Below are positions 2,470 through 13,809 of a stretch of DNA of 64,000 nucleotides, piece after piece. The stretch lies in NCBI GenBank assembly GCA_964188305.1, contig OZ076887.1; one strand, written 5' to 3'. The DNA comes from Podarcis bocagei. Taxonomy: Eukaryota. Every line of letters starts with the position of its first letter. The first letter of the stretch is position 1. The notes under the pieces were generated by a model. That model worked only from the letters and a program-made list of their open reading frames with translations, ran no database searches and was not told the DNA's origin. A program made the translations under genes and the position numbers.

Positions 2470-2567
2470 ACATGAGTCTGACCAAACTGCGGGAAGCAGT
2501 GGAAGACAGGAGTGCCTGGCGTGCTCTGGTCCAGGGGGTCATGAAGAGTCAGACACGACTAAATGAC

Positions 2568-2613
<46 letters not shown>
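2470..2613 (+). mobile_element. BovB (RTE) LINE 3' end with (CAA)n tail
   Basis: gaagacaggagtgcctggcgtgctctggtcca...gaagagtcagacacgactaa followed by a (CAA)n run, the canonical BovB 3' end. Confidence 0.85.
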
Positions 2614-2614
<1 letters not shown>

Positions 2615-2624
2615 AATGTATGAA

Positions 2625-3050
2625 GTTACATTGAAAGACCTACATTGGCTCCCTGTACGTTTCTGAGCACAATTCAAAGTGTTGGTGTTGACCTTTAAAG
2701 CCCTAAACGGCCTCGGCCCAGTAGACCTGAAGGAGCGTCTCCACCCCCATCATTCTGCCCGGACACTGAGGTCCAGTGCCGAGGGCCTTCTGGCGGTTCC
2801 CTCCCTGCAAGAAGTGAGGTTACAGGGAAGCAGGCAGAGGGCCTTCTCAGTAGTGGCACCTGCCCTGTGGAACGCCCTCCCACCAGATGTCAAAGAGAAG
2901 AACAACTACCAGACTTTTAGAAGACATCCGAAGGCAGCCCTGTTTAGGGAAGCTTTTAATGTTTGACGTATTAATATTTTTTTGGAAGCTGCCCAGAGTG
3001 GCTGGGGAAGCCCAGCCAGATGGGCAGGGTATAAATAATTTATTTTTATT
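2625..3050 (+). mobile_element. L2-clade LINE 3' end (5'-truncated)
   Basis: LHWLPVRF.AQFKVLVLTFKALNGLGP...RTLRSS...RAFSVVAPALWNALP (ORF 2679-2966) followed by the family 3' UTR. Sister copy at 38474-38775. Confidence 0.88.
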
Positions 3051-3436
3051 TTTATTAGACACCCCCCAAGCCAAGGAGATAAGTAACTCTACAACTTCAG
3101 AAGTCATCTGAAGGGAAGTTTTTTAAAATGTTTCATGTTTTATTATATTTTTATCCAAGGTGACTGGGGCAGATGGGAAGGGTATAAATAATAAAATTAT
3201 TACTATTATTATTATTATTATGGAATAGGGTGTCTCAATTTTCTTTGATGAAATGTTGCAAGGTATTCCGATTAATGCTTTTTATAGGATATTGGACACG
3301 GTGCGAGTTTATGGCTGCCAAGTATTGGCCTGAAAGGAAGCGCAGCCGGCGTCAGGGAACTGCTGGAGGATGGAGCTTGCAAGTGTTAGAATGCAAAACG
3401 GGGACAGGTTCAGGCACGCAAGAAGGTGGGGGAAAG

Positions 3437-3590
3437 GGGAGCCCGGATGGCTCAGTTCAAGAGCACGGCGCTGATAAGGCCAAGGTTGCAGGTTCGATCC
3501 CTTGTAGGGTGGCAGCGGCGTATTACTGCATTGCAGCGGGTGGGACTAGATGACCCTCGGCTCCCTTCCAGCTCGACAGATTCTATGAAA
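3437..3590 (+). mobile_element. tRNA-derived SINE with CR1-like tail
   Basis: A-box-like tggctcagtt and B-box ggttcgatcc. 3' end ggactagatgaccctcggctcccttccagctc...attctatga matches the CR1 tail. Confidence 0.75.
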
Positions 3591-4350
3591 GCGCATGGAG
3601 CGCGGAAGTTGCATTGCAAGTAGTACGCAGGGGGGGGGGGGCGCAAGGGTTGCAGAGAGAGAGGGAGGGAGGGGAGAACTGGCCCTCCGCTGGACAACTG
3701 ACCCGGCCGGGCTCTGTTTCCCAGGGAAGCAGGAAGTTGCAATCCAAAGTTGCAGAAGCGCCCTGCTCCTTCTTCCGCGGAGGGAAACGCTCCTGCGGAG
3801 GCGAGAGGCAGCGAGGAGGCGACGAGGTGAGGCTTTTGTGAGGTAGGGAGAGGAAAGACGGGGGAGGGAACCCAAGGAGGATTTGCACGAGAGGGAATGA
3901 AGGGGAAACGCGCCTCCCACGCGGAGCACTTTTCCCCGGGAAATGCACGGGGTGGGGTCGTGGCTGATCCGTGCTGCGCGCTCGCGTCGTGCGGCCCAAA
4001 GTGCTGCAGGATCGCCAATGCAAGACCCCCTTTTGAAACCTCCCCCTCCCCCAGCTCTGGAAAAAAAGGGGGAAGGGGATGGCGTCAGTGTGCGGAGGCT
4101 GCCCGTGCCCGGCCAGGCGTCGGTGGCGGCGTCAGCGCTGCTGCAGTGGCTGCTCCTCCTGCGAGCAGTGAGTGGAGCGCAGCCGCAGCGGCAGCGGGGG
4201 GCGCGCCCGCGCTAGGGCGCAAGGCTGGCAGTGGCAGCGGCGGCGGGGAGCCCGGCCGAGGAAGGAACTTGTCTCTTCCCTCTGGACTCGCGCCCCCCAC
4301 AGATGTTGCGCCCGGTGCGGCTGGCACCCCTGGCACCCCCCACTCTACGC
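3580..4350 (+). promoter_or_regulatory. CpG island / promoter and first exon(s) of an unidentified large host gene
   Basis: High GC and dense CpG outside any recognisable repeat. ETS-like GGAAGT motifs at ~3604 and ~3732. Consensus splice donors GAG|GTGAGG (GT at 3827) and GCA|GTGAGT (GT at 4168) indicate + strand transcription. Confidence 0.8.
4079..4167 (+). CDS. Candidate first coding exon (MASVCGGCPCPARRRWRRQRCCSGCSSCE-, phase 2); gene not identified
   Basis: ATG in good Kozak context (GGGATGG), open to the donor at 4168, with a stop (TGA 4169-4171) immediately inside the intron. Other frames (e.g. ...ASALLQWLLLLRA) or a non-coding exon cannot be excluded. Confidence 0.4.
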
Positions 4351-5554
4351 CACTGGTTGCTTCCCCTCTTCAGATTAGTGACGTGGTTAGATGTGAACGC
4401 TTTGAAAACAGTATCTGCTTTCAGTAGTTAAGTCTTCTAGTGAAACCAGGCTGCGCAGCAGCTTACATGGGCAAAAGTGTTTGCTGTGTGTACAGCAGCA
4501 AACATGTCAGATGTGGAGGTCATACATGAATGTTTTTAAATGCTCATATACACCCTGGCCCAATCAAGGATCCCAGTGATGGGTATGAAGGAGTTTAAAG
4601 ATGTGTATAGACATACGTGTTGCTCACCACCACAACCCACACCTTTGCTGTGGGAAGTCCTGAAAATCAAGCTGGCATTCATATAGCAAAAACATGTACA
4701 ATGTAAAGCGTGGTTCAATGGGACTTGAAAGTGCTTGCTTTTGGACGGATCATTTCTTTTCTTTGGCAAAGGATGCAGCACTGAGCTCTGCCAGTTGGGC
4801 AAAGTCTACAGTGAATGAAAAGCACTGCTGTTGAGCCTGCTACTTACAGAATATTTAATAAGAAAAGATTAAGGGAAATGTGATAGCGTTTTTTCTAATA
4901 TGTCATAAAATGAGGCCAATGTGACTCTCTGAAAGAAGTAAAACAAAATTGCCCAGATTCAGCAACCTGTTCTGTGCACAGAATTGCTGATCTGCATACG
5001 GAGCTCCCAGTAGCGGTTTCCCAATTTATTGCAACGGGGAAACAGATAACATGCATGCAATCTTTGTGGTTTGCAAATCTACCAGCTCTATTGCAATAAC
5101 AGCAGCAACTTGTTCGTGAAAGAGGGATGTACACATAGCATGTATACAGATATTTGAATCAGGGTACATAGAAGTTGTGATACATAGGGAGCTGGGCCAT
5201 GGCAAACCATATACCACAATGCGGCTTTGCCCCTCAGGTGCCTCTGAACTGCAAAATGTGCTCCACATCGATTCGACAATAATGAAGAAGTAGCCGGAGT
5301 ATGTGTATTTTCTCCTGTCCATCGTTTTACTCCTGAAAATTCCCAAACTGCACAGTCATCTCAAGTTGAAGCCATTTCAAGATGGCAGAAATACCACAAA
5401 ATCAGTGCCGGATTTACATATAAGCTAAACAAGCTATAGCTTAGGGCCTCACTCTCTTGGGGGCCCCAAAAAAATTTAAAGGAAAAAAAAACTGGATGTG
5501 CATTTATTAAAAATATTTACAAGATAAATAAAATAAAATAAAACCTACATACAG

Positions 5555-5937
5555 TGTGAGATTGGGAAACAATGAAAGCATACAGAAAGGACGTGCCTCA
5601 AACTCAGCCTTGAGAGCTAGACATGTATACAAGATAACACAGTCGCGTACGCCAGAAAGGGCGAGCCAAAGGGTGATGCCCACACTGAGAAGGGAGTAAA
5701 TATGAATAGAGTAGATTGAACAATGTATTAGAAATGTGTTAAACTCTGATAGGTAGATTGTAAGCCAAGCCTCCAAAAGAGGGGCGGCAGTAAGGGATAA
5801 AACTACGGTGCTGAAACCAGATCGGGGCTCTTCGTATCCACGGGTACGAGGGGTCCGCTTTTGCAAACGCGCTAATAAAAGGGTTACCCTTATATTGAAG
5901 TCCTTTGTCAGTTTCTATCCACGGACAACTTCTCACA
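5555..5937 (+). repeat. 5' LTR (383 bp)
   Basis: TGTGAGA...TCTCACA terminal inverted repeat. GC box GGGGCGG 5781-5787, TATA-like GATAAA 5796-5801, AATAAA 5874-5879. I see no differences from the 3' LTR by eye. Confidence 0.96.
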
Positions 5938-5942
5938 ACTTT

Positions 5943-5960
5943 TGGCGCCCAACGTGGGGC
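5943..5960 (+). other. Primer binding site, tRNA-Lys1,2
   Basis: TGGCGCCCAACGTGGGGC, an 18-nt match to the Lys1,2 PBS, 5 nt after the LTR end. Confidence 0.92.
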
Positions 5961-6193
5961 CCTCGACGGGCTGCTCGGGGGGATCCCGGAATCCGGGTAG
6001 GCGCCCCTCCGTCTTTTCGGAGTGACCCGAGCCGGAGTCCACCCGTGACGGTTCACGAGGGCTAAAAGACAGGACTTGATATAGGGGGATAGAGAGAGAG
6101 AACTAGGTCTCATTTTTGGCGGTCCGGGACCGCGAGCACCCAGCGGGGACGCCCGCCTGTTCACTAGTTGCGAGAAGCGACGCTGGACTGTAT

Positions 6194-6202
6194 TGGGTGA
6201 GT
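6194..6202 (+). promoter_or_regulatory. Candidate retroviral major splice donor
   Basis: TGG|GTGAGT (GT at 6197) in the leader upstream of gag. Confidence 0.55.
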
Positions 6203-6413
6203 AGACATGAGAACTTTGTAAACTGTGCTGTGGGACGGGGGTGAGAGACTCGTCTCTTGGATGAAAGAGAGGCTCCATACGGACGCGTGAGTGTGGATCA
6301 GGGTTCGGCCCTGACGGGAGGATTAGCTTGCGGTTCCGTCTCTCCCGCGAGGGAAGCAGCCAGGCGATTCCGTGTGATTGTGTGAGTGAGTGAAATTGGA
6401 GACATTGTAAACC

Positions 6414-6653
6414 ATGGGTAAGGGTCAGAGTAAACGACAGAAGGATTCAAATGGGAAGGGTCCAATTGATCCTAATAGTCCATTAGGACAAATACTGATG
6501 CAATGGGATGAGGACTATCCAAGACAATATACAATAGGCTTGTCAAAAGTGACTATGATTAATTTCTGTAGGGTGGTTTGGCCAAAATACCCTATAGGGC
6601 CGGATGGAATGTATAATTGGAACCCTGAGGGGGAGACTAAGGCTGGATCCTGA
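6414..6653 (+). pseudogene. gag: Truncated gag (matrix region only, 79 aa)
   Basis: MGKGQSK myristoylation motif and PIDPNSPLGQIL..W...MINFCRVVWP...W.PEG, typical of class I MA. Viral similarity ends at ~6633 and the frame stops in host-like DNA. Confidence 0.85.
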
Positions 6654-7833
6654 GCTTGATCAGCTCAGTCACATGACCTCAAAACTCGACATAAATGAAG
6701 GTGGCAGAAATACAGGTGGTGTAACTCAAACTGGATGACGTAATTCTAACTCTATTTTAGATACTCTTTTTTCCTCTGCCTGGCTTAGAACAGCTCAGCC
6801 CGTGGTAGCTCCACTGCTGAATGGAATTTGGAGCCAGTTTATTTAACACAGGCTTAACTTATGCTGGGTTCTTCTGCATAGGATTTCTGCCTAAGAGAGA
6901 ATGGATTGCTCAAGGTCACCAAGTGAGATTTGAACCTGAGTCTGGTCAGTTGCAGTCTATAGCCACCTCTAGAGTCACTGCATCATGCTGGCTGTCTAAA
7001 ACTAGTACAGTGGCACCTCGGGTTAGGAACTTAATTCGTTCCAGAGGTCTGTTCTTAACCTGAAGCGTCTGTAACCTGAAGCGTATGTAACCCAAGGTAC
7101 CACTGTATATAAATATTGCCATAGCCTAGAACAGGCATAGTTGAAGAAAACAGAAATTTGATTTCAATAGACTTCATTTGCAAAATGAAGTGTTTGAGAT
7201 CACCACCTGGTGATAAAAGCAACTATGAATGCTGAAACATAGAATTTGTTTTTGTTAGTTCTAATATTATTCATTCTCAGACAACAGAGAATATATGTTC
7301 TATAACTGAGGGAGGATCCAATAATTTGGATATGTTAGGATGCACTTTCTTTCCACCTAGGTTTGCATAGCACAGTTTGTTTAATCACTACATTGAATAA
7401 AGCTGTATTATTCTATATGTTATTTTTGTTTTAGAAAAGTGGAGGCTTTTGTTTTTAACATTATAAATTATCCCTTGCTTCATTACTATTTCCTCAGAGG
7501 TGCAAATATTGAGGGTTTAGTGATCCGCAAATCAATTTATTGATTAAAAAGGCAGATGATTTATCTACTACAAATATTTATTATGTGAGTCGAATATTTA
7601 CTTCCAGAAAAGAAAGAGGAGGCAGTCTTCAAACCTTTTGTCTTTATATGAACTGGAGCTTTAAAACTGCACAGGGACTTGGAATGTTGCGCTAAATCCC
7701 AAAGTGGTACATTAGTCACCAAAGGTCAACAGATGCAGCCAAAGATCCATGAGAAATTAATTTTTCATGTGGCTTGGCAATTTGTCACATGCAAGCACAG
7801 TTCTTTTATACAGCTATGCATTGGAGGGCACAA
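6635..7833. other. Host-like insert A inside the provirus
   Basis: AT-rich, non-coding and non-viral. Contains a MIR-like remnant (ctcaaggtcacc...gagatttgaacctgagtct, ~6909-6943), a Tc1/mariner MITE, AATAAA at 7396 and a pyrimidine-rich CAG at 7811-7813. Confidence 0.8.
7008..7105. mobile_element. Tc1/mariner MITE (internally deleted) within insert A
   Basis: TA|CAGTGGCACCTCGGGTTA ... TAACCCAAGGTACCACTG|TA. Same family as 52928-53169 in the opposite orientation, with several substitutions. Confidence 0.9.
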
Positions 7834-9138
7834 AGAGAGTGAAGGGAATTTTGGAATTGCAACCCCCTAAGAATAAAACAGACGTAAGAAGGATGTTAGG
7901 GTTGCTGGGGTATTGTAGGCTGTGGATAGATCAATGCGCAAAATTGGTTCAGTTCTTGAATCAAAAACTTGTTGGGGACGAAAAGGTAACGTGGAAACAG
8001 GAGGACAAATTAAAATGGGAGGAGATAAAAAGAACACTGATCGGGGCCCCGGTTTTGGCATTGCCCAATCTCCAGCAACCGTTCCACTTATATGTGACGA
8101 TCAGTTCCCAGACGGCTGTGGGGGTTTTGGCCCAAAAGAGAGGAGGGCGATATCAGCCGGTTGCCTACCTCAGTAAAACCTTGGAACCGGTGGTACGAGC
8201 CTGGCCCACTTGTATCCAGGCAGTGGCAGCTGCAGCTGAACTGGTGGTTGAAAGCAGAAAGTTAACTTTTGGAGGGGCCCTGATAGTTCACAGCCCCCAC
8301 CAGATATCCACTGTAATGACTGGGGCGGCCTTCACCTGGATGACAGATGGTCGCTTGGTAAAATATGAAACCATATTATGGACAAGCCCCAACATCACCC
8401 TGGGGACCGACCGAAATTTAAATCCAGCGGAGTTTTTGATCGGGGAAAGAAAAGAGTGGGAGCCGGATGAGCATGATTGTATGAATACTATACAATTAAT
8501 GTCAAAAGTCCGGGAAGATTTGTCAGAGGTGCCATTGGTAGGGGGAGAAAGATGGTACACTGATGGTTCTAGTTATGTTGAAGAGGGAAGGAGAAAGTCA
8601 GGATATGCTATAGTTAAGGAAGATGGGGAAATTCTCGAAAGCGGAGCTTTGCCGGCAACCTGGTCGGCCCAGAAATGTGAGATTATGGCCCTGGCACGGG
8701 CTCTCGAGTTGGCAAGGGGCTTAGAGGTAACCATATGGACAGACTCCCGCTATGCATGGGGGGGTGGTACATACCTTTGGTAGGACTTGGCGGGACCGGG
8801 GATATATTAAGGCGGATGGAAAGCAAATAGAACACATGGCATTACTAGAAAGACTATTAAATGCCCTCACTGGACCAGAAAAGGTCGCAGTGGTTCATGT
8901 TCCAGCCCACACCAGAGGGACGAGCCCCGAAGAAGTAGGAAATAGGTGGGCTGATTTGAGAGCAAAGGAAGCTGCCAGGGGCACCCCTAGAGCCGCACTG
9001 GTACAACAATATAGTTTGAAAGTACCTGTCCTGACCAAAGCAGATACAGAAAACCTGGTCTTTACCCCCCAAGAGATAGATTACATGAAAAAGGAGGGAT
9101 GGGAACAAAGGGACAATAGATGGGAAACCCCAGAAGGA
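7834..9138 (+). pseudogene. pol: pol fragment: RT thumb/connection, RNase H and linker; one +1 frameshift
   Basis: LGLLGYCRLWI, LALP...PFHLYV, PVAYLSKTL, LNPA, WYTDGSS, SAQKCE, WTDSRY, HVPAH, GNRWAD (all four RNase H acidic residues present). The G7 run at 8758-8764 has one G more than YAWGVVH needs. RT YxDD palm and protease are absent. Confidence 0.93.
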
Positions 9139-9253
9139 CCCCCCCCCTTGGGATTACAATACTACAGAGGGAAGGGCGGCCTTAGAGACTTATCACAGAA
9201 ATGTTTTAGAAGGCATGAGACGGGCAGCGGAAAGGCCTACAAATATGGCGAAA
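9137..9253 (+). pseudogene. gag: Out-of-order gag capsid fragment (39 aa)
   Basis: Frame from 9137 reads DPPPWDYNTTEGRAALETYHRNVLEGMRRAAERPTNMAK, matching the gammaretroviral CA segment P.WDYNT.EGR..L..Y......G...A..RPTN.AK. Not in the supplied ORF track. Confidence 0.88.
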
Positions 9254-9960
9254 TTCTCAAAAATGATTTCTTCTCATCTCTGTTCTTGCTAAAAGACTGT
9301 TGCAGCTAGAAGCGAGTGAACTAACTGTTTCTAACATTCATTCATGAAAGTAACAGGACATCAGTTTGTTTTTTTCCCCCCTTGTGCCAGGCGCTTGGAG
9401 GTAGCTTCAGAGCGTTATCTCTTGGCTCCTATTCCAAGAAGGACACTGCTGCATTCAGCCAGCCACCCTGAACCTCACACTTTCTGGATTTACAGTTCAG
9501 CCACATAAACCCAGAAGGCCAAGAGTTACCCACCCCCCTGCCCCAAAGTATTAACCTGGAAAAGTGACTTTCTTAAAAAGCAAGTGAATGCTTTCTGTGA
9601 ACTTTGTCAAGTTTTTCTTTTTAATGTGTAATTTTACTCTGAAAGGAGCTGCGGCATAGGAATTGATACTTTGAGGAATTTGAAACTTTGCCAGAAGCAA
9701 GGAGTGCATTGTTCTTTCTACAGACACTGGCAAATGAACTGAAATTTGCAACATGGCTTAGAGTTCTGAAACTTAGAGCACACAAATAAGACTTTTGAAA
9801 AATCTCGGCTGGCAAAACTTAACCCAAGGAACAGAACTGTTAACCCCTTGCGAAGTTTCTTGCCATGCTGACCCCTTTGAGTTAATATACCTTATGTGCA
9901 AATGTTATCTATCAATTTGTTCTGTGCAATCGCTGCCGTCTTTGTTATCTCTTCTCTTAA
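9254..9960. other. Host-like insert B inside the provirus
   Basis: Non-viral, intron-like composition. Ends in a polypyrimidine tract plus CAG (ttatctcttctcttaacag, AG at 9962-9963). Confidence 0.78.
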
Positions 9961-10121
9961 CAGGTGGACTTCACAGAGCTACCAGAGAGCATGGGTGGAC
10001 TCACTATCACAGGGTCAAGAAAGCCCCGCAGGACTGGAGGGTAACTGTTGACCCCGATAATCCGCTGAAGGTGACGCTTACCAATCAGGGAACCAGGAAC
10101 CAGAAAGAATCCAAACGCTGA
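9961..10121 (+). pseudogene. pol: Integrase remnants: core start fused to C-terminus
   Basis: 9961-9984 reads QVDFTELP (first catalytic D of the IN core). From ~9981 another frame reads TREHGWTHYHRVKKAP..W......NPLKVTL to the stop at 10119-10121. The intervening IN core is deleted. Confidence 0.85.
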
Positions 10122-10126
10122 CCTCG

Positions 10127-10351
10127 ATGTGTCTATTCTGTACTTGCAAATGTTTTTATGAATGCTGTTGCTGTGCTCATTGCGAATGTTGTGTGTTATG
10201 TGTGCATTGCACTGAGTTGTGTGACATAATTTTCATAGAAGACATAATTATACAATATTGTGCCATCACCCTTGAGGGAGAGGTCAATTGCAGTTTGAGC
10301 TGGACTCCCATGGTAGTGCAAGCTGTAAACCAATTAAGACGGAAGCAATGA
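10127..10351 (+). CDS. Cys-rich 74-aa ORF between pol and env (candidate accessory protein)
   Basis: ATG 5 nt after the pol stop. 16 Cys, 14 of them in the first 32 residues. Its TGA (10349-10351) overlaps the env ATG (10348-10350). Confidence 0.6.
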   Translation: MCLFCTCKCFYECCCCAHCECCVLCVHCTELCDIIFIEDIIIQYCAITLEGEVNCSLSWTPMVVQAVNQLRRKQ

Positions 10352-11322
10352 TAGCAGGGTTCAGCCTCCTGATTATGCTAGGGAGTATCCTGGCCACCGA
10401 AATTCAAGATGAGAGCTGCAGCCAATGTATCCGAGTTACTAAAACTGGGACAGTAATTACACGAACTTTAATGTATTATAATGTTGCCCCCGAGTGTGTA
10501 GTAGAATTAGACCCCTGTGTCCACAATCAGACCCAATATCTTAGATGTAAGACCCAAAAGAATGAAACGGAATGTTATGAGCCCTTAGCGGTGGGACCTA
10601 TTACCTCTAGCATATATGTATATGGATATAAAGGGGGAACAGCAAATAAGGCAAGTGAAAGGGCACATATGTTTTCCCTAGCACAAAATAGGCGGGGATA
10701 TATAGCTCACAACTCCACCAGGGGCACGGAGAAGATACATGTTTGTTTTGATGCATGCATTGCTATTTCAAAGGGACAGGGGCCTAACGACCAAGCTGGA
10801 GTCACTTGTGGGTCATTAAGCTGGGAGAGAGCTTATCTCCAAGAGAATAAGTACCTGTTCCAACAGATTGCCGGTTCCAATATAGGGGCCACAAGGGTGA
10901 CGAACCATTGGTATACAAATGGGGTGAAAGAGATACCCCTATATAGGGGTCCGAAGGGGATAAATATCACCAGGGGAGCGGCTTCGACGGCCTGTGGGTC
11001 AGGACAATGCAATCCTGTATGTCTGTGGGCTAAGGAACTCCCGTCCACTAGACCTAAATATATTCACCTTGGTTTGGGGATAGATGGAAATGGGAAGGAT
11101 CCTTATGGGCACCTAATCATAAAAGTACATACTACTAAGGTCAGCAAACAGCCAATCTCAGTATTTGAGAGCTTTGAAGAAGAAATACAACAATTAAATA
11201 AATTACCTCTTCCCCCAAGAGCTCATAACATGTTTTTGAGTCTAGCTGAGACTATCGCCAAAGAGCTAACTGTGAAAAATTGTTTTGTATGTGGAGGAAC
11301 GAATATGGGAGTTATTATGTGA
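10348..11322 (+). CDS. env: Truncated Env, 324 aa: signal peptide plus N-terminal SU only (ERV3/HERV-I-type)
   Basis: MIAGFSLLIMLGSILA signal peptide; CSQC; TRTLMYY; C.HNQT.Y..C; VFESF...LP.PP...NMFLSLAETIA..L.V.NCFVCGGTNMG, closely paralleling human ERV3-1 Env. Stops 3 codons later. No furin site, ISD or TM domain. Confidence 0.9.
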   Translation: MIAGFSLLIMLGSILATEIQDESCSQCIRVTKTGTVITRTLMYYNVAPECVVELDPCVHNQTQYLRCKTQKNETECYEPLAVGPITSSIYVYGYKGGTANKASERAHMFSLAQNRRGYIAHNSTRGTEKIHVCFDACIAISKGQGPNDQAGVTCGSLSWERAYLQENKYLFQQIAGSNIGATRVTNHWYTNGVKEIPLYRGPKGINITRGAASTACGSGQCNPVCLWAKELPSTRPKYIHLGLGIDGNGKDPYGHLIIKVHTTKVSKQPISVFESFEEEIQQLNKLPLPPRAHNMFLSLAETIAKELTVKNCFVCGGTNMGVIM

Positions 11323-11338
11323 GTTTGAGGCAAGGTAC

Positions 11339-11352
11339 AAAAGAGAGGGGGG
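11339..11352 (+). other. Polypurine tract
   Basis: AAAAGAGAGGGGGG ending 2 nt before the 3' LTR. Confidence 0.92.
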
Positions 11353-11354
11353 AT

Positions 11355-11737
11355 TGTGAGATTGGGAAACAATGAAAGCATACAGAAAGGACGTGCCTCA
11401 AACTCAGCCTTGAGAGCTAGACATGTATACAAGATAACACAGTCGCGTACGCCAGAAAGGGCGAGCCAAAGGGTGATGCCCACACTGAGAAGGGAGTAAA
11501 TATGAATAGAGTAGATTGAACAATGTATTAGAAATGTGTTAAACTCTGATAGGTAGATTGTAAGCCAAGCCTCCAAAAGAGGGGCGGCAGTAAGGGATAA
11601 AACTACGGTGCTGAAACCAGATCGGGGCTCTTCGTATCCACGGGTACGAGGGGTCCGCTTTTGCAAACGCGCTAATAAAAGGGTTACCCTTATATTGAAG
11701 TCCTTTGTCAGTTTCTATCCACGGACAACTTCTCACA
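11355..11737 (+). repeat. 3' LTR (383 bp)
   Basis: Direct repeat of 5555-5937 at an offset of exactly 5800. AATAAA at 11674-11679. Confidence 0.96.
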
Positions 11738-13809
11738 TACAGCAACAGTGTTTTGAGTTGTGTAGGCTCCTGTGATGTAAATAATGGGCCCTGCCTGCTA
11801 GCCTGCTCCCTAAAATATCACTGGTTTGCTCATTTCTAGATATAGGGTGCCTACATTCTGCATGTGCTTTAGCTACCTATTAGGCCCATAAATTACCATA
11901 TAGCATATATTCAACACACAAAAACAGTGACAATTTGTTGTTGACAAAGGGCCGCTGGACATATAAAGGGCCCCATTACCTTCAGTAGCTTAGGGCTTCA
12001 TCAAACCTAAATCTGGCCCTGCACACAATGAGCATAAAACAATTTGCCTATTCTTCCTTCGGGGAAAAGGGATCTTTGCGTGGTATGAACACAAGGGCAG
12101 CCCAAGGCATTTTGGCACCTGAGGCAGACATCCAAATGGCGCCCCCTCCCTGCTTAGGAAGAAGGGATGAGGCGAGATCTACATCAGGAACAAGGTGGTG
12201 GTGGTGGGGAGAGATCGGCATCTGGATCTGCTGCCTCGGTGATTCCTGCTGCCTGAGGCAGTCATCTCAGCTTGTCTTACGGCTGGGACGACCCTATATG
12301 GACACTAACAGTTAAACTCACACATTAGTTGGGGCTTCAGGAGCAGCAGGGACAGTGGCAGAAACCTAAGAAGCAAAATGTACAAAAACAGGAGAAGGGA
12401 AATGGAGAGCCAGGAGTGTCATGTTTAGACATTTGTTTAATGTCTTACTCTTACTAGGTAGAAATAGATTTGACATCACTGTGCCAGTTGTCCTATATCC
12501 CCTGGAGAGCTAATGCAGGTGTGTAAGGAAGGGCATGTTTACTCAAGCTGCATTTTACATTGTGATTTATCTCTTTATTCTTCAAGGAATATTTATTCTT
12601 CAAGAAATATTCTTCAAGGAATATTTTTCAATGTGAGACAAATTAAATGTCAAAAAAGCTAATTTGGCTGCTGTTCATAAATTACATTGCCATTTAAATG
12701 CATTAATTTCATTCTTATTGCTATACTTTCTCGCTTTTCATTGCAGGATTCTGTGAGATAGCCACTGGCTTTATCAATGTTTGTCTTTTATGAATGATTT
12801 AGTACTGTTTTTCTACACATCCCATTGTAAATGGGAAAATAGGATTGTTATGTCCTCTATTATTGCTAAAAGTTTAATTATTACAAATATTTGCCCCAGT
12901 TTTGTCGTAATGAAATGGTGATTTTAAACAGAAGGGAATGGGGTTTTCTATTTAGATTCACTATGAGGTTTTGAATTATTGTGACAATAATGATACCAAG
13001 CGGATATTTTTATGCCCCCAGATTTATACCTTCAGTATTTCATTACTCTTTCTCCAGTATTTCAGTGCTTTGACCCTTCATTTTAGAGAGGCGTTCTAGA
13101 GAAGTATATTTATAGGGGCAAGCAATAATGGTTTCTTCCTGGAACTCTGAACAATCTTGGCATATTTCACACATCTTCAGAAAATGTTGTCAGTTCCCTT
13201 CATTTATCCCTTTCCTGTACATTTCTAAAGGTAGGATAGGATAAGTAAATGGAAACAACTCGACAACCCAAAACAGGTGTGTATACTTGACCTAGGATTT
13301 GCTAAAGATTTGGTTAACCAAGTATCTTCATGTGTTGCCATTGCGATGATACTATCTATATGTATATCACCTGCTTCTGTTGGAAGAGAGGTGTAGATTA
13401 CCCCTCATATGTTGAATGCACTTCTGGCTGCAGTGGCCACCTGGGTAAAGAAGGATCCAGGAGCAGACCTAGACCAGGTATCTCTTCCTTCAGAAGGGAG
13501 TTCAGCCCTGTCCTCACTGAAGTATCTCCTGGTCCTGGACATAGAATCATAGAATTACAGAGTTGGAAAGGACCCTAAGGATCATTTTGATGTTTTATTA
13601 TGTTTTATACCTGTTGGAAGCCACCCAGAGTGGCTGGGGTAACCCAGACAGATGGGCAGGGTACAAATAATAAAATTATTATTATAATTATTACTCCTAT
13701 CCCCATCAATGCAAGAATATATAGCTGCCCCATACAAGGACCAAACCTGCATCCTTAGTATTATCAGCCATCTGAGCTATCCAGGCTTGGAAACCTCTAC
13801 CTGTGTAAT

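Follow-up and report, generated by a model that had tools for sequence, protein, structure and literature searches.

A defective gamma-like endogenous retrovirus of Podarcis bocagei combining two virus families and one host locus, with shared junctions at five genomic sites

A 64,000-nt stretch of the Podarcis bocagei genome (contig OZ076887.1, hereafter the window) contains a provirus at positions 5555–11737, referred to below as the window copy. Analysis of this provirus and of its relatives in the same assembly revealed a defective gamma-like endogenous retrovirus (ERV) that unites three sources, namely its own family (family 1), a second ERV family devoid of pol (family 2) and a single host locus, and that occupies five sites with the same junctions. 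The account which we consider probable is that the element arose by stepwise template switching of reverse transcriptase and was spread by means of the proteins of a working relative.

The two long terminal repeats (LTRs) of the window copy (5555–5937 and 11355–11737; 383 bp, TG...CA) were aligned and found to match at 383 of 383 bases. They are accompanied by a target-site duplication (TACAG at 5550–5554 and 11738–11742), an 18-mer resembling a primer-binding site (PBS, 5943–5960) and a polypurine tract (11339–11354), all in agreement with the initial annotation. The features of the provirus lie on the plus strand. Its PBS, presumably of the tRNA-Lys type, is unlike that of family 2. Since the LTR pair is identical, the integration can be estimated, from the rule of three and a rate assumed at 2–4e-9 per site per year, to be younger than roughly 1–2 million years. 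The provirus had been described as scrambled, with at least six non-colinear junctions. This description was not borne out, as the viral backbone is colinear with the full-length relative L045 and departs from it by two replaced segments and three deletions. A segment called insert A (6630–7839) takes the place of ~2.7 kb of gag, pro and the reverse transcriptase (RT) region, and a slice of family 2 (9127–9971) displaces ~245 bp of the integrase; further deletions affect the integrase and env. The paired TG...CA LTRs, the target duplication, the PBS and the polypurine tract correspond to a class I (gamma-like) ERV. Gamma-type domains were also detected, with RNase H in the window copy and Gag_p30, RVT_1, rve, MLVIN_C and TLV_coat in the colinear L045; the RT core is missing from the window copy, and the class placement is based on structure and domains.

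The genome was searched with the LTR-leader, pol and env regions, and every candidate was scored (27 of 27, 12 of 12 and 12 of 12, respectively). Five proviruses carrying insert A were obtained (the window copy, L025, L026, L027 and L028), together with one that contains B, the non-coding part of the family-2 slice, without A (L031), the 8.9-kb full-length L045, three solo LTRs and five remoter proviruses. The four other A-bearing proviruses diverge from the window copy by 0.3–2.2%. The five loci are distributed over four contigs, each with its own flanks and its own target duplication of 4–5 bp, and the LTR pairs are identical in four of the five. Both junctions of the slice are common to six loci with target duplications of their own. 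The proposal that a non-autonomous chimeric ERV was moved as a unit is thus well supported, given five copies that share their junctions and each have a target duplication of their own. In L045 (L045:549-9477), the LTRs are identical, the frames of gag, pol and env are interrupted, and a target duplication is not evident. It was rejected as direct source of pol and env, being 16% and 25% different, respectively, with several frame breaks.

Insert A is unique host DNA. A single non-proviral full-length match was found in the genome (G000:C6:6707860-6709203, minus strand), which is free of LTRs and 98% identical. Searches with queries devoid of a miniature inverted-repeat transposable element (MITE) present in A, in which all candidates were scored (8 of 8 and 26 of 26), returned six full matches, corresponding to the five proviruses and this one donor, as had been anticipated. 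Insert A of the window copy differs from the donor by 22 substitutions, by one base and by the MITE (TA-flanked, 7006–7107, no strand assigned), which is 144 bp longer in the donor. The annotated deletion of the MITE is therefore real; it occurred on an 8-nt repeat and is present in five of five copies. Because all five copies differ from the donor jointly at 17 columns and by this deletion, A was captured once. An old dispersed repeat reported within A was likewise recovered (21 weak matches at 67–92%), the name MIR given to it being putative. No ERV of the three families identified here was found within 110 kb of the donor, and read-through capture from a neighbouring provirus is therefore unsupported.

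The second insert is a continuous 845-bp slice of family 2, composed of a gag capsid (CA) piece (9127–9258) and of B (9254–9971). The locus L030 covers 9127–9971 as a single piece, gag CA fragment included, with 97% identity over 846 columns. A Gag_p30 match was detected in the window at 9089–9289 (E 6.6e-9); the underlying fragment had been attributed to the virus's own gag, and it belongs instead with B to the family-2 slice. The slice ends at a predicted splice acceptor (9963). In L030, the interval 2497–8067 (L030:2497-8067) is a 5.57-kb element of the form LTR-gag-B-env-LTR with identical 524-bp LTRs and a PBS different from that of family 1. It codes for gag (Gag_MA, Gag_p30) and env (TLV_coat), B is non-coding, and no long open reading frame (ORF) was found at the expected place of pol. 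B is thus part of a second, young, pol-less ERV family and not host DNA. Being pol-less, family 2 must borrow pol from another virus. A tree of B was calculated from 20 sequences, i.e. the window and the 19 first-fetched loci (donor excluded; later-fetched loci left out). The six chimeras cluster together (90/83) as sister to L030 (100/98), and L030 is the sole non-chimeric carrier of the gag|B deletion junction among the loci of this tree. Besides L030, family 2 is represented by more than 30 loci and is young and abundant, with many identical LTR pairs and several LTR types.

Short overlaps between the parental sequences, measured on stand-in parents, were observed at the junctions. They amount to 8 nt at gag|A, 4 nt at A|pol, 6 nt at pol|slice and 12 nt at slice|integrase, and to 8, 9 and 5 nt at the MITE deletion, the second integrase deletion and the env deletion, respectively. 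Random breakpoints reached at least 4, 6 and 8 nt with frequencies of ~0.017, 0.0017 and 0.00013 (~1.3e-4), and at least 12 nt in 0 of 200,000 cases.

A succession of events can be proposed from these data. The two junctions of the slice recur in L031, as does the first integrase deletion (~470 bp); L031 lacks A and has a longer gag, so that the family-2 slice was likely acquired before A. A family-1 genome would first have gained the 845-bp slice of family-2 RNA and lost part of the integrase, a state retained in L031. A descendant would then have exchanged 2.7 kb of gag-pro-RT for host segment A and lost the transmembrane subunit (TM) of env. The A-bearing form would have integrated at no fewer than five sites and traded tracts of LTR and env with relatives packaged alongside it; the pair formed by the window copy and L025 would last have shed ~190 bp more of the integrase.

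Several observations weigh against this account. An ORF scan of 110 kb at the donor revealed no exon-like ORF of at least 90 aa, the only long ORFs resembling those of long interspersed elements (LINEs) as judged by eye. None of the 148 predicted exon candidates scanned there gave a Pfam match (148 of 173 were taken; those omitted were mostly LINE-like-ORF rows, overlapping alternative frames and the lowest scorers). Insert A is kept in full relative to the donor, with no intron removed, and the unique parts of A, pol and env were at zero depth in RNA (~12% of one run, from another sample). The overlap is only 4 nt at A|pol and only 2 nt at the internal deletion of family 2, and all overlaps depend on stand-in parents, L045 being 8–25% away. 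Outside the chimeras, no pol source above 84% and no env source above 76% was found among the 12 candidates scored for each. The group of six chimeras appeared in only 88% of the bootstrap trees. Finally, L031 bears private deletions in gag-pol and env, and the first 135 bp of its pol piece are gone; owing to the latter and to the private env deletion, it represents a sister lineage rather than a direct ancestor.

With no exon-like ORF, no Pfam-supported exon in the 110 kb and no RNA reads, the intronic or untranslated-region origin that the initial annotation had assigned to A is unproven. These findings also give some weight to an explanation in which A was patched as DNA into a provirus already in place, by break repair templated by the donor, RNA serving only for the later spread. 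Such a patch would fit a donor for which the 110-kb scans and the part of one RNA run revealed no gene, splicing or transcript, as well as the short right-hand overlap of A, and short microhomologies are also consistent with repair synthesis. However, the remaining junctions and the env exchange described below join viral RNAs which could be co-packaged. Moreover, retroviruses are described as acquiring unlinked host RNA where microhomology happens to exist (PMC4997597). A DNA-level patch is consequently regarded as unlikely, and A would rather have been captured through RNA.

The proposed exchange with relatives was suggested by the mosaic structure of env. LTR sites join L026 to the window copy, and 35 informative sites at 10515–11043 join L028 to the window copy. 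This difference in grouping between env and LTR formed 4 runs, a result reached in 0 of 200,000 permutations. A 36-bp inversion in pol, common to L027 and L028 at the equivalent of 8306–8341, accounts for nine pol sites at 8319–8335; these were excluded from the runs test, and the inversion confounds the ratio of non-synonymous to synonymous changes (pN/pS) in pol for these two copies. The env piece of the window copy (10348–11322) encodes a signal peptide and the surface subunit (SU), contains the exchanged tract and has lost TM at 11306–11311. Between the window copy and L026, the changes in env are predominantly synonymous (24 synonymous and 18 non-synonymous; pN/pS 0.21, Fisher p 5e-7), and pN/pS is 0.17 between the window copy and L031. 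The simplest reading of these sequence patterns is that the defective RNA and that of a functional relative, packaged together, exchanged an env tract, and this tract is likely the footprint of co-packaging with a working helper. The intact helper, which the initial annotation recommended finding, was sought in the assembly, where none is close enough in pol or env. Env exchange among retroviruses is treated in the available part of PMC10536682.

Alternatively, the constraint on env and on the neighbouring Cys-rich ORF could reflect selection on the chimera itself, with a spliced RNA giving rise to SU in secreted form and to a small Cys protein, without any exchange with a helper. Two independent TM losses leave nearly the same SU piece, the predicted donor at 6197 and acceptor at 9963 could yield an env RNA, and three copies (the window copy, L025 and L031) retain an open SU frame. 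On the other side, SU is frameshifted in three of the five A-bearing copies (L026–L028), the differences are concentrated in a single 530-bp tract, and no env reads were present in the one RNA run. Selection on the chimera is therefore judged improbable, and exchange with a helper is retained. As regards TM, its two losses (in L031, and at 11306–11311 in the A lineage) have nearby endpoints and leave an open signal-peptide-plus-SU frame; L052, a member of a distant group, is shortened in env at the same place.

The annotated Cys-rich ORF was confirmed, as was the env SU ORF, the latter piece giving no TLV_coat match in Pfam. The Cys-rich ORF (74 codons, 10127–10351) lies between pol and env and is open in six of seven genomic copies. 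Its homologue in L045 (G000:C5:7703322-7703537) is 62% identical, the DNA being 24% apart, and one outside homologue is 57% identical. Its pN/pS is low, with few sites. Neither Pfam nor a word-indexed protein search returned a match, and the ORF was not found in the remoter L049–L053 group. It is a candidate accessory gene of a gamma-like retrovirus.

The initial annotation had interpreted both A and B as host intronic or untranslated pieces transduced by the virus. This holds for A, as far as its host origin is concerned, and fails for B. In favour of that interpretation, B is AT-rich, none of its ORFs is supported by Pfam, and its translation does not resemble pol (tblastx against pol of three full-length relatives, nothing significant, best E 0.17); it may also have been host DNA when family 2 gained it long ago. 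However, L030 contains the gag CA piece and B without interruption. The search for B, in which 40 of the 52 candidates were scored, gave 42 matches, and all 35 non-chimeric B loci that were fetched lie in family-2 ERV sequence. Compared with the reference L038, 34 of 34 match family 2 beyond B, and an LTR-like pair was seen in 26 of the 34 within the stretch examined. The LTR-free donor that had been predicted for B was accordingly not encountered at any non-chimeric locus examined, and no host donor could be retained among the 35. Copies of B at 72–76% identity exist, and a search with an old copy (40 of 57 candidates scored) added one new locus, likewise of family 2. A host source as the proximate origin of B is largely refuted, and the version with two host pieces is highly improbable. 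An old relative of family 2 (L078:3614-5083) carries a gag zinc knuckle, recognised by eye, followed by B and then by non-family sequence, and may be relevant to the first origin of B.

Misassembly and the later insertion of transposons into the integrated provirus can practically be dismissed: collapsed repeats alone could give identical LTRs, but the five loci have distinct flanks and 0.3–2.2% divergence, short-read contigs of other samples bridge four junctions, namely gag|A (X1, X13), A|pol (X1), pol|slice (X1, X5) and the env deletion (X13), no target duplication was found at any insert edge, and both inserts take the place of viral DNA. Among the contigs listed from these samples, none crosses slice|integrase or the whole element.

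The other parts of the window copy are as follows. The leader (5961–6413) is 92% identical to L045 and contains the top-scoring predicted splice donor of the element (6197, by a simple matrix score). A gag 5' stump of 74 codons (matrix, 6414–6638) has 81% amino-acid identity to the gag start of L045. The pol fragment (7836–9132) comprises the RT connection, RNase H and the start of the integrase (Pfam PF17919, PF17917 and PF00075), is 84% identical to L045 and has a frame break near 8757. The RT-to-RNase H segment of the initial annotation was recovered, with these Pfam domains in 7761–8780. The start of the integrase core is reduced to a 30-bp remnant (9960–9989, 97% to L045), which is longer in L026–L028 and L031, and the C-terminal remnant of the integrase (9981–10121) was left by two nested deletions. 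Rfam gave no match on 5400–12000, and no tRNA was detected in the whole 64-kb window.

The provirus is inserted in a host MITE (left part 5403–5554, right part 11738–11996, no strand assigned), whose termini we take to be hAT-like and which shows very high contig depth. The same repeat occurs at L027 and L040, and the MITE copy beside L027 carries the insertion site with one, unduplicated TACAG. L027 (1714–1914, 8297–8399) is a second chimeric copy in this MITE family, at another position of the MITE, and L040 (1602–1872, 7763–7913) is a family-2 element nested in another repeat and in the same MITE family. Recurrent insertion into one MITE family may be due to chance given its abundance. Approximately 1.2 kb upstream of the provirus, a CpG island (3300–4350) is accompanied by possible first exons that end at donor-like sites near 3828 and 4168; this region gave no Pfam match. 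If it is a gene, the provirus would lie in sense orientation in its first intron. Elsewhere in the genome, five further young proviruses of gamma-like type (L049–L053) form a third group. Their similarity is ~70% in pol and 77% in env SU, and long gag or env ORFs persist in some of them.

Data from other samples gave indications on expression and on a possible spread between species. The family-2 piece was read in one RNA run in a single direction at a depth of 4–13, and the family-1 interior had no reads in the same run. Empty-site joints present in the contigs stem from other MITE copies and are uninformative, as the insertion site lies within a high-copy MITE. In the sequencing runs X1, X5 and X13, which stem from differently labelled organisms, the unique left flank (5007–5415) is ~5% different (20–22 of ~405 bases). 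The listed pieces of the element are mostly 0–1% different, env and pol pieces reaching 2–3% and one B piece ~5%. Contig depth in X13 is far above that of A on the LTR, pol and env, depth not being equivalent to copy number. It is conceivable, if doubtful, that the chimera belongs to a still-circulating retrovirus complex which transferred a segment of host chromosome from one species to another, a lead that rests on one flank and on collapsed contigs. In this case, the role of helper would fall to a gamma-like virus not yet described, equipped with a conserved Cys-rich accessory gene, and secreted SU might be produced by the chimera itself. Hybridisation or an unusually divergent flank haplotype would also explain the contrast between flank and element, in line with the distance of only ~2% between A and the donor of its own genome.

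The presence of the donor, the second viral parent, the A-less sister lineage and the five copies in one genome makes it possible to trace capture, decay and remobilisation stepwise. Through an ERV, five new sites have here received a copy of a unique, apparently non-genic stretch of 1.2 kb, a kind of duplication which screens based on intron loss would overlook. An env tract with the mark of purifying selection in a dead element also offers a means to detect a helper that is absent from the assembly.

The comparison with known systems draws on the available portions of the cited reports. The recKoRV elements are recombinants of koala retrovirus and PhER for which co-packaging was proposed (PMC6112702). 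The lizard element resembles them in having young gamma-type virus ends and the interior of a second ERV, microhomology at the breakpoints (here 6 and 12 nt), and many loci with the same breakpoints and their own target duplications. In contrast to recKoRV, the second parent is young and active and a unique host segment was added; the nested junctions and trees point to one origin followed by spread, whereas the koala report leaves repeated formation open (PMC6112702). LTR-mediated retrocopies, among them HERV-K/FAM8A1, have host sequence between discontinuous parts of an LTR element and microsimilarity at the switch points, and their report also mentions chimeras of several parents and renewed rounds of retroposition (PMC5131818). 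Insert A alone shares this arrangement, as unique host sequence with an LTR-free donor and with microsimilarity of 8 nt on the left and a weak 4 nt on the right. It differs in having no detected gene or exon and in being amplified to five copies, and the element was not classified as a retrocopy because the RNA origin of A is putative. Bovine ERVK[2-1-LTR] D-type elements are similarly defective, mobilised in trans and recombining with competent relatives in segments flanking the interior. They belong to another retrovirus group, no close competent partner was found here in the assembly, and the available portion of that report describes no unique host DNA as cargo (PMC10924933). As in acute transforming retroviruses and "patch repair", host sequence has taken the place of viral genes, in the account preferred here through non-homologous template switching, and the product would depend on a helper. 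Unlike in these viruses, the cargo is non-coding and in the germ line, and the donor has no LTR or provirus nearby (PMC4997597); ORFs in A do not exceed 80 aa, the scans of the donor revealed no gene, and the element is not an oncogene-carrying virus. A full-text search, with most subscription journals outside its scope, returned no publication on this element. Both processes, recombination of the recKoRV type and LTR-mediated host capture, are known; what is new is their combination and the complete record of it in one genome.

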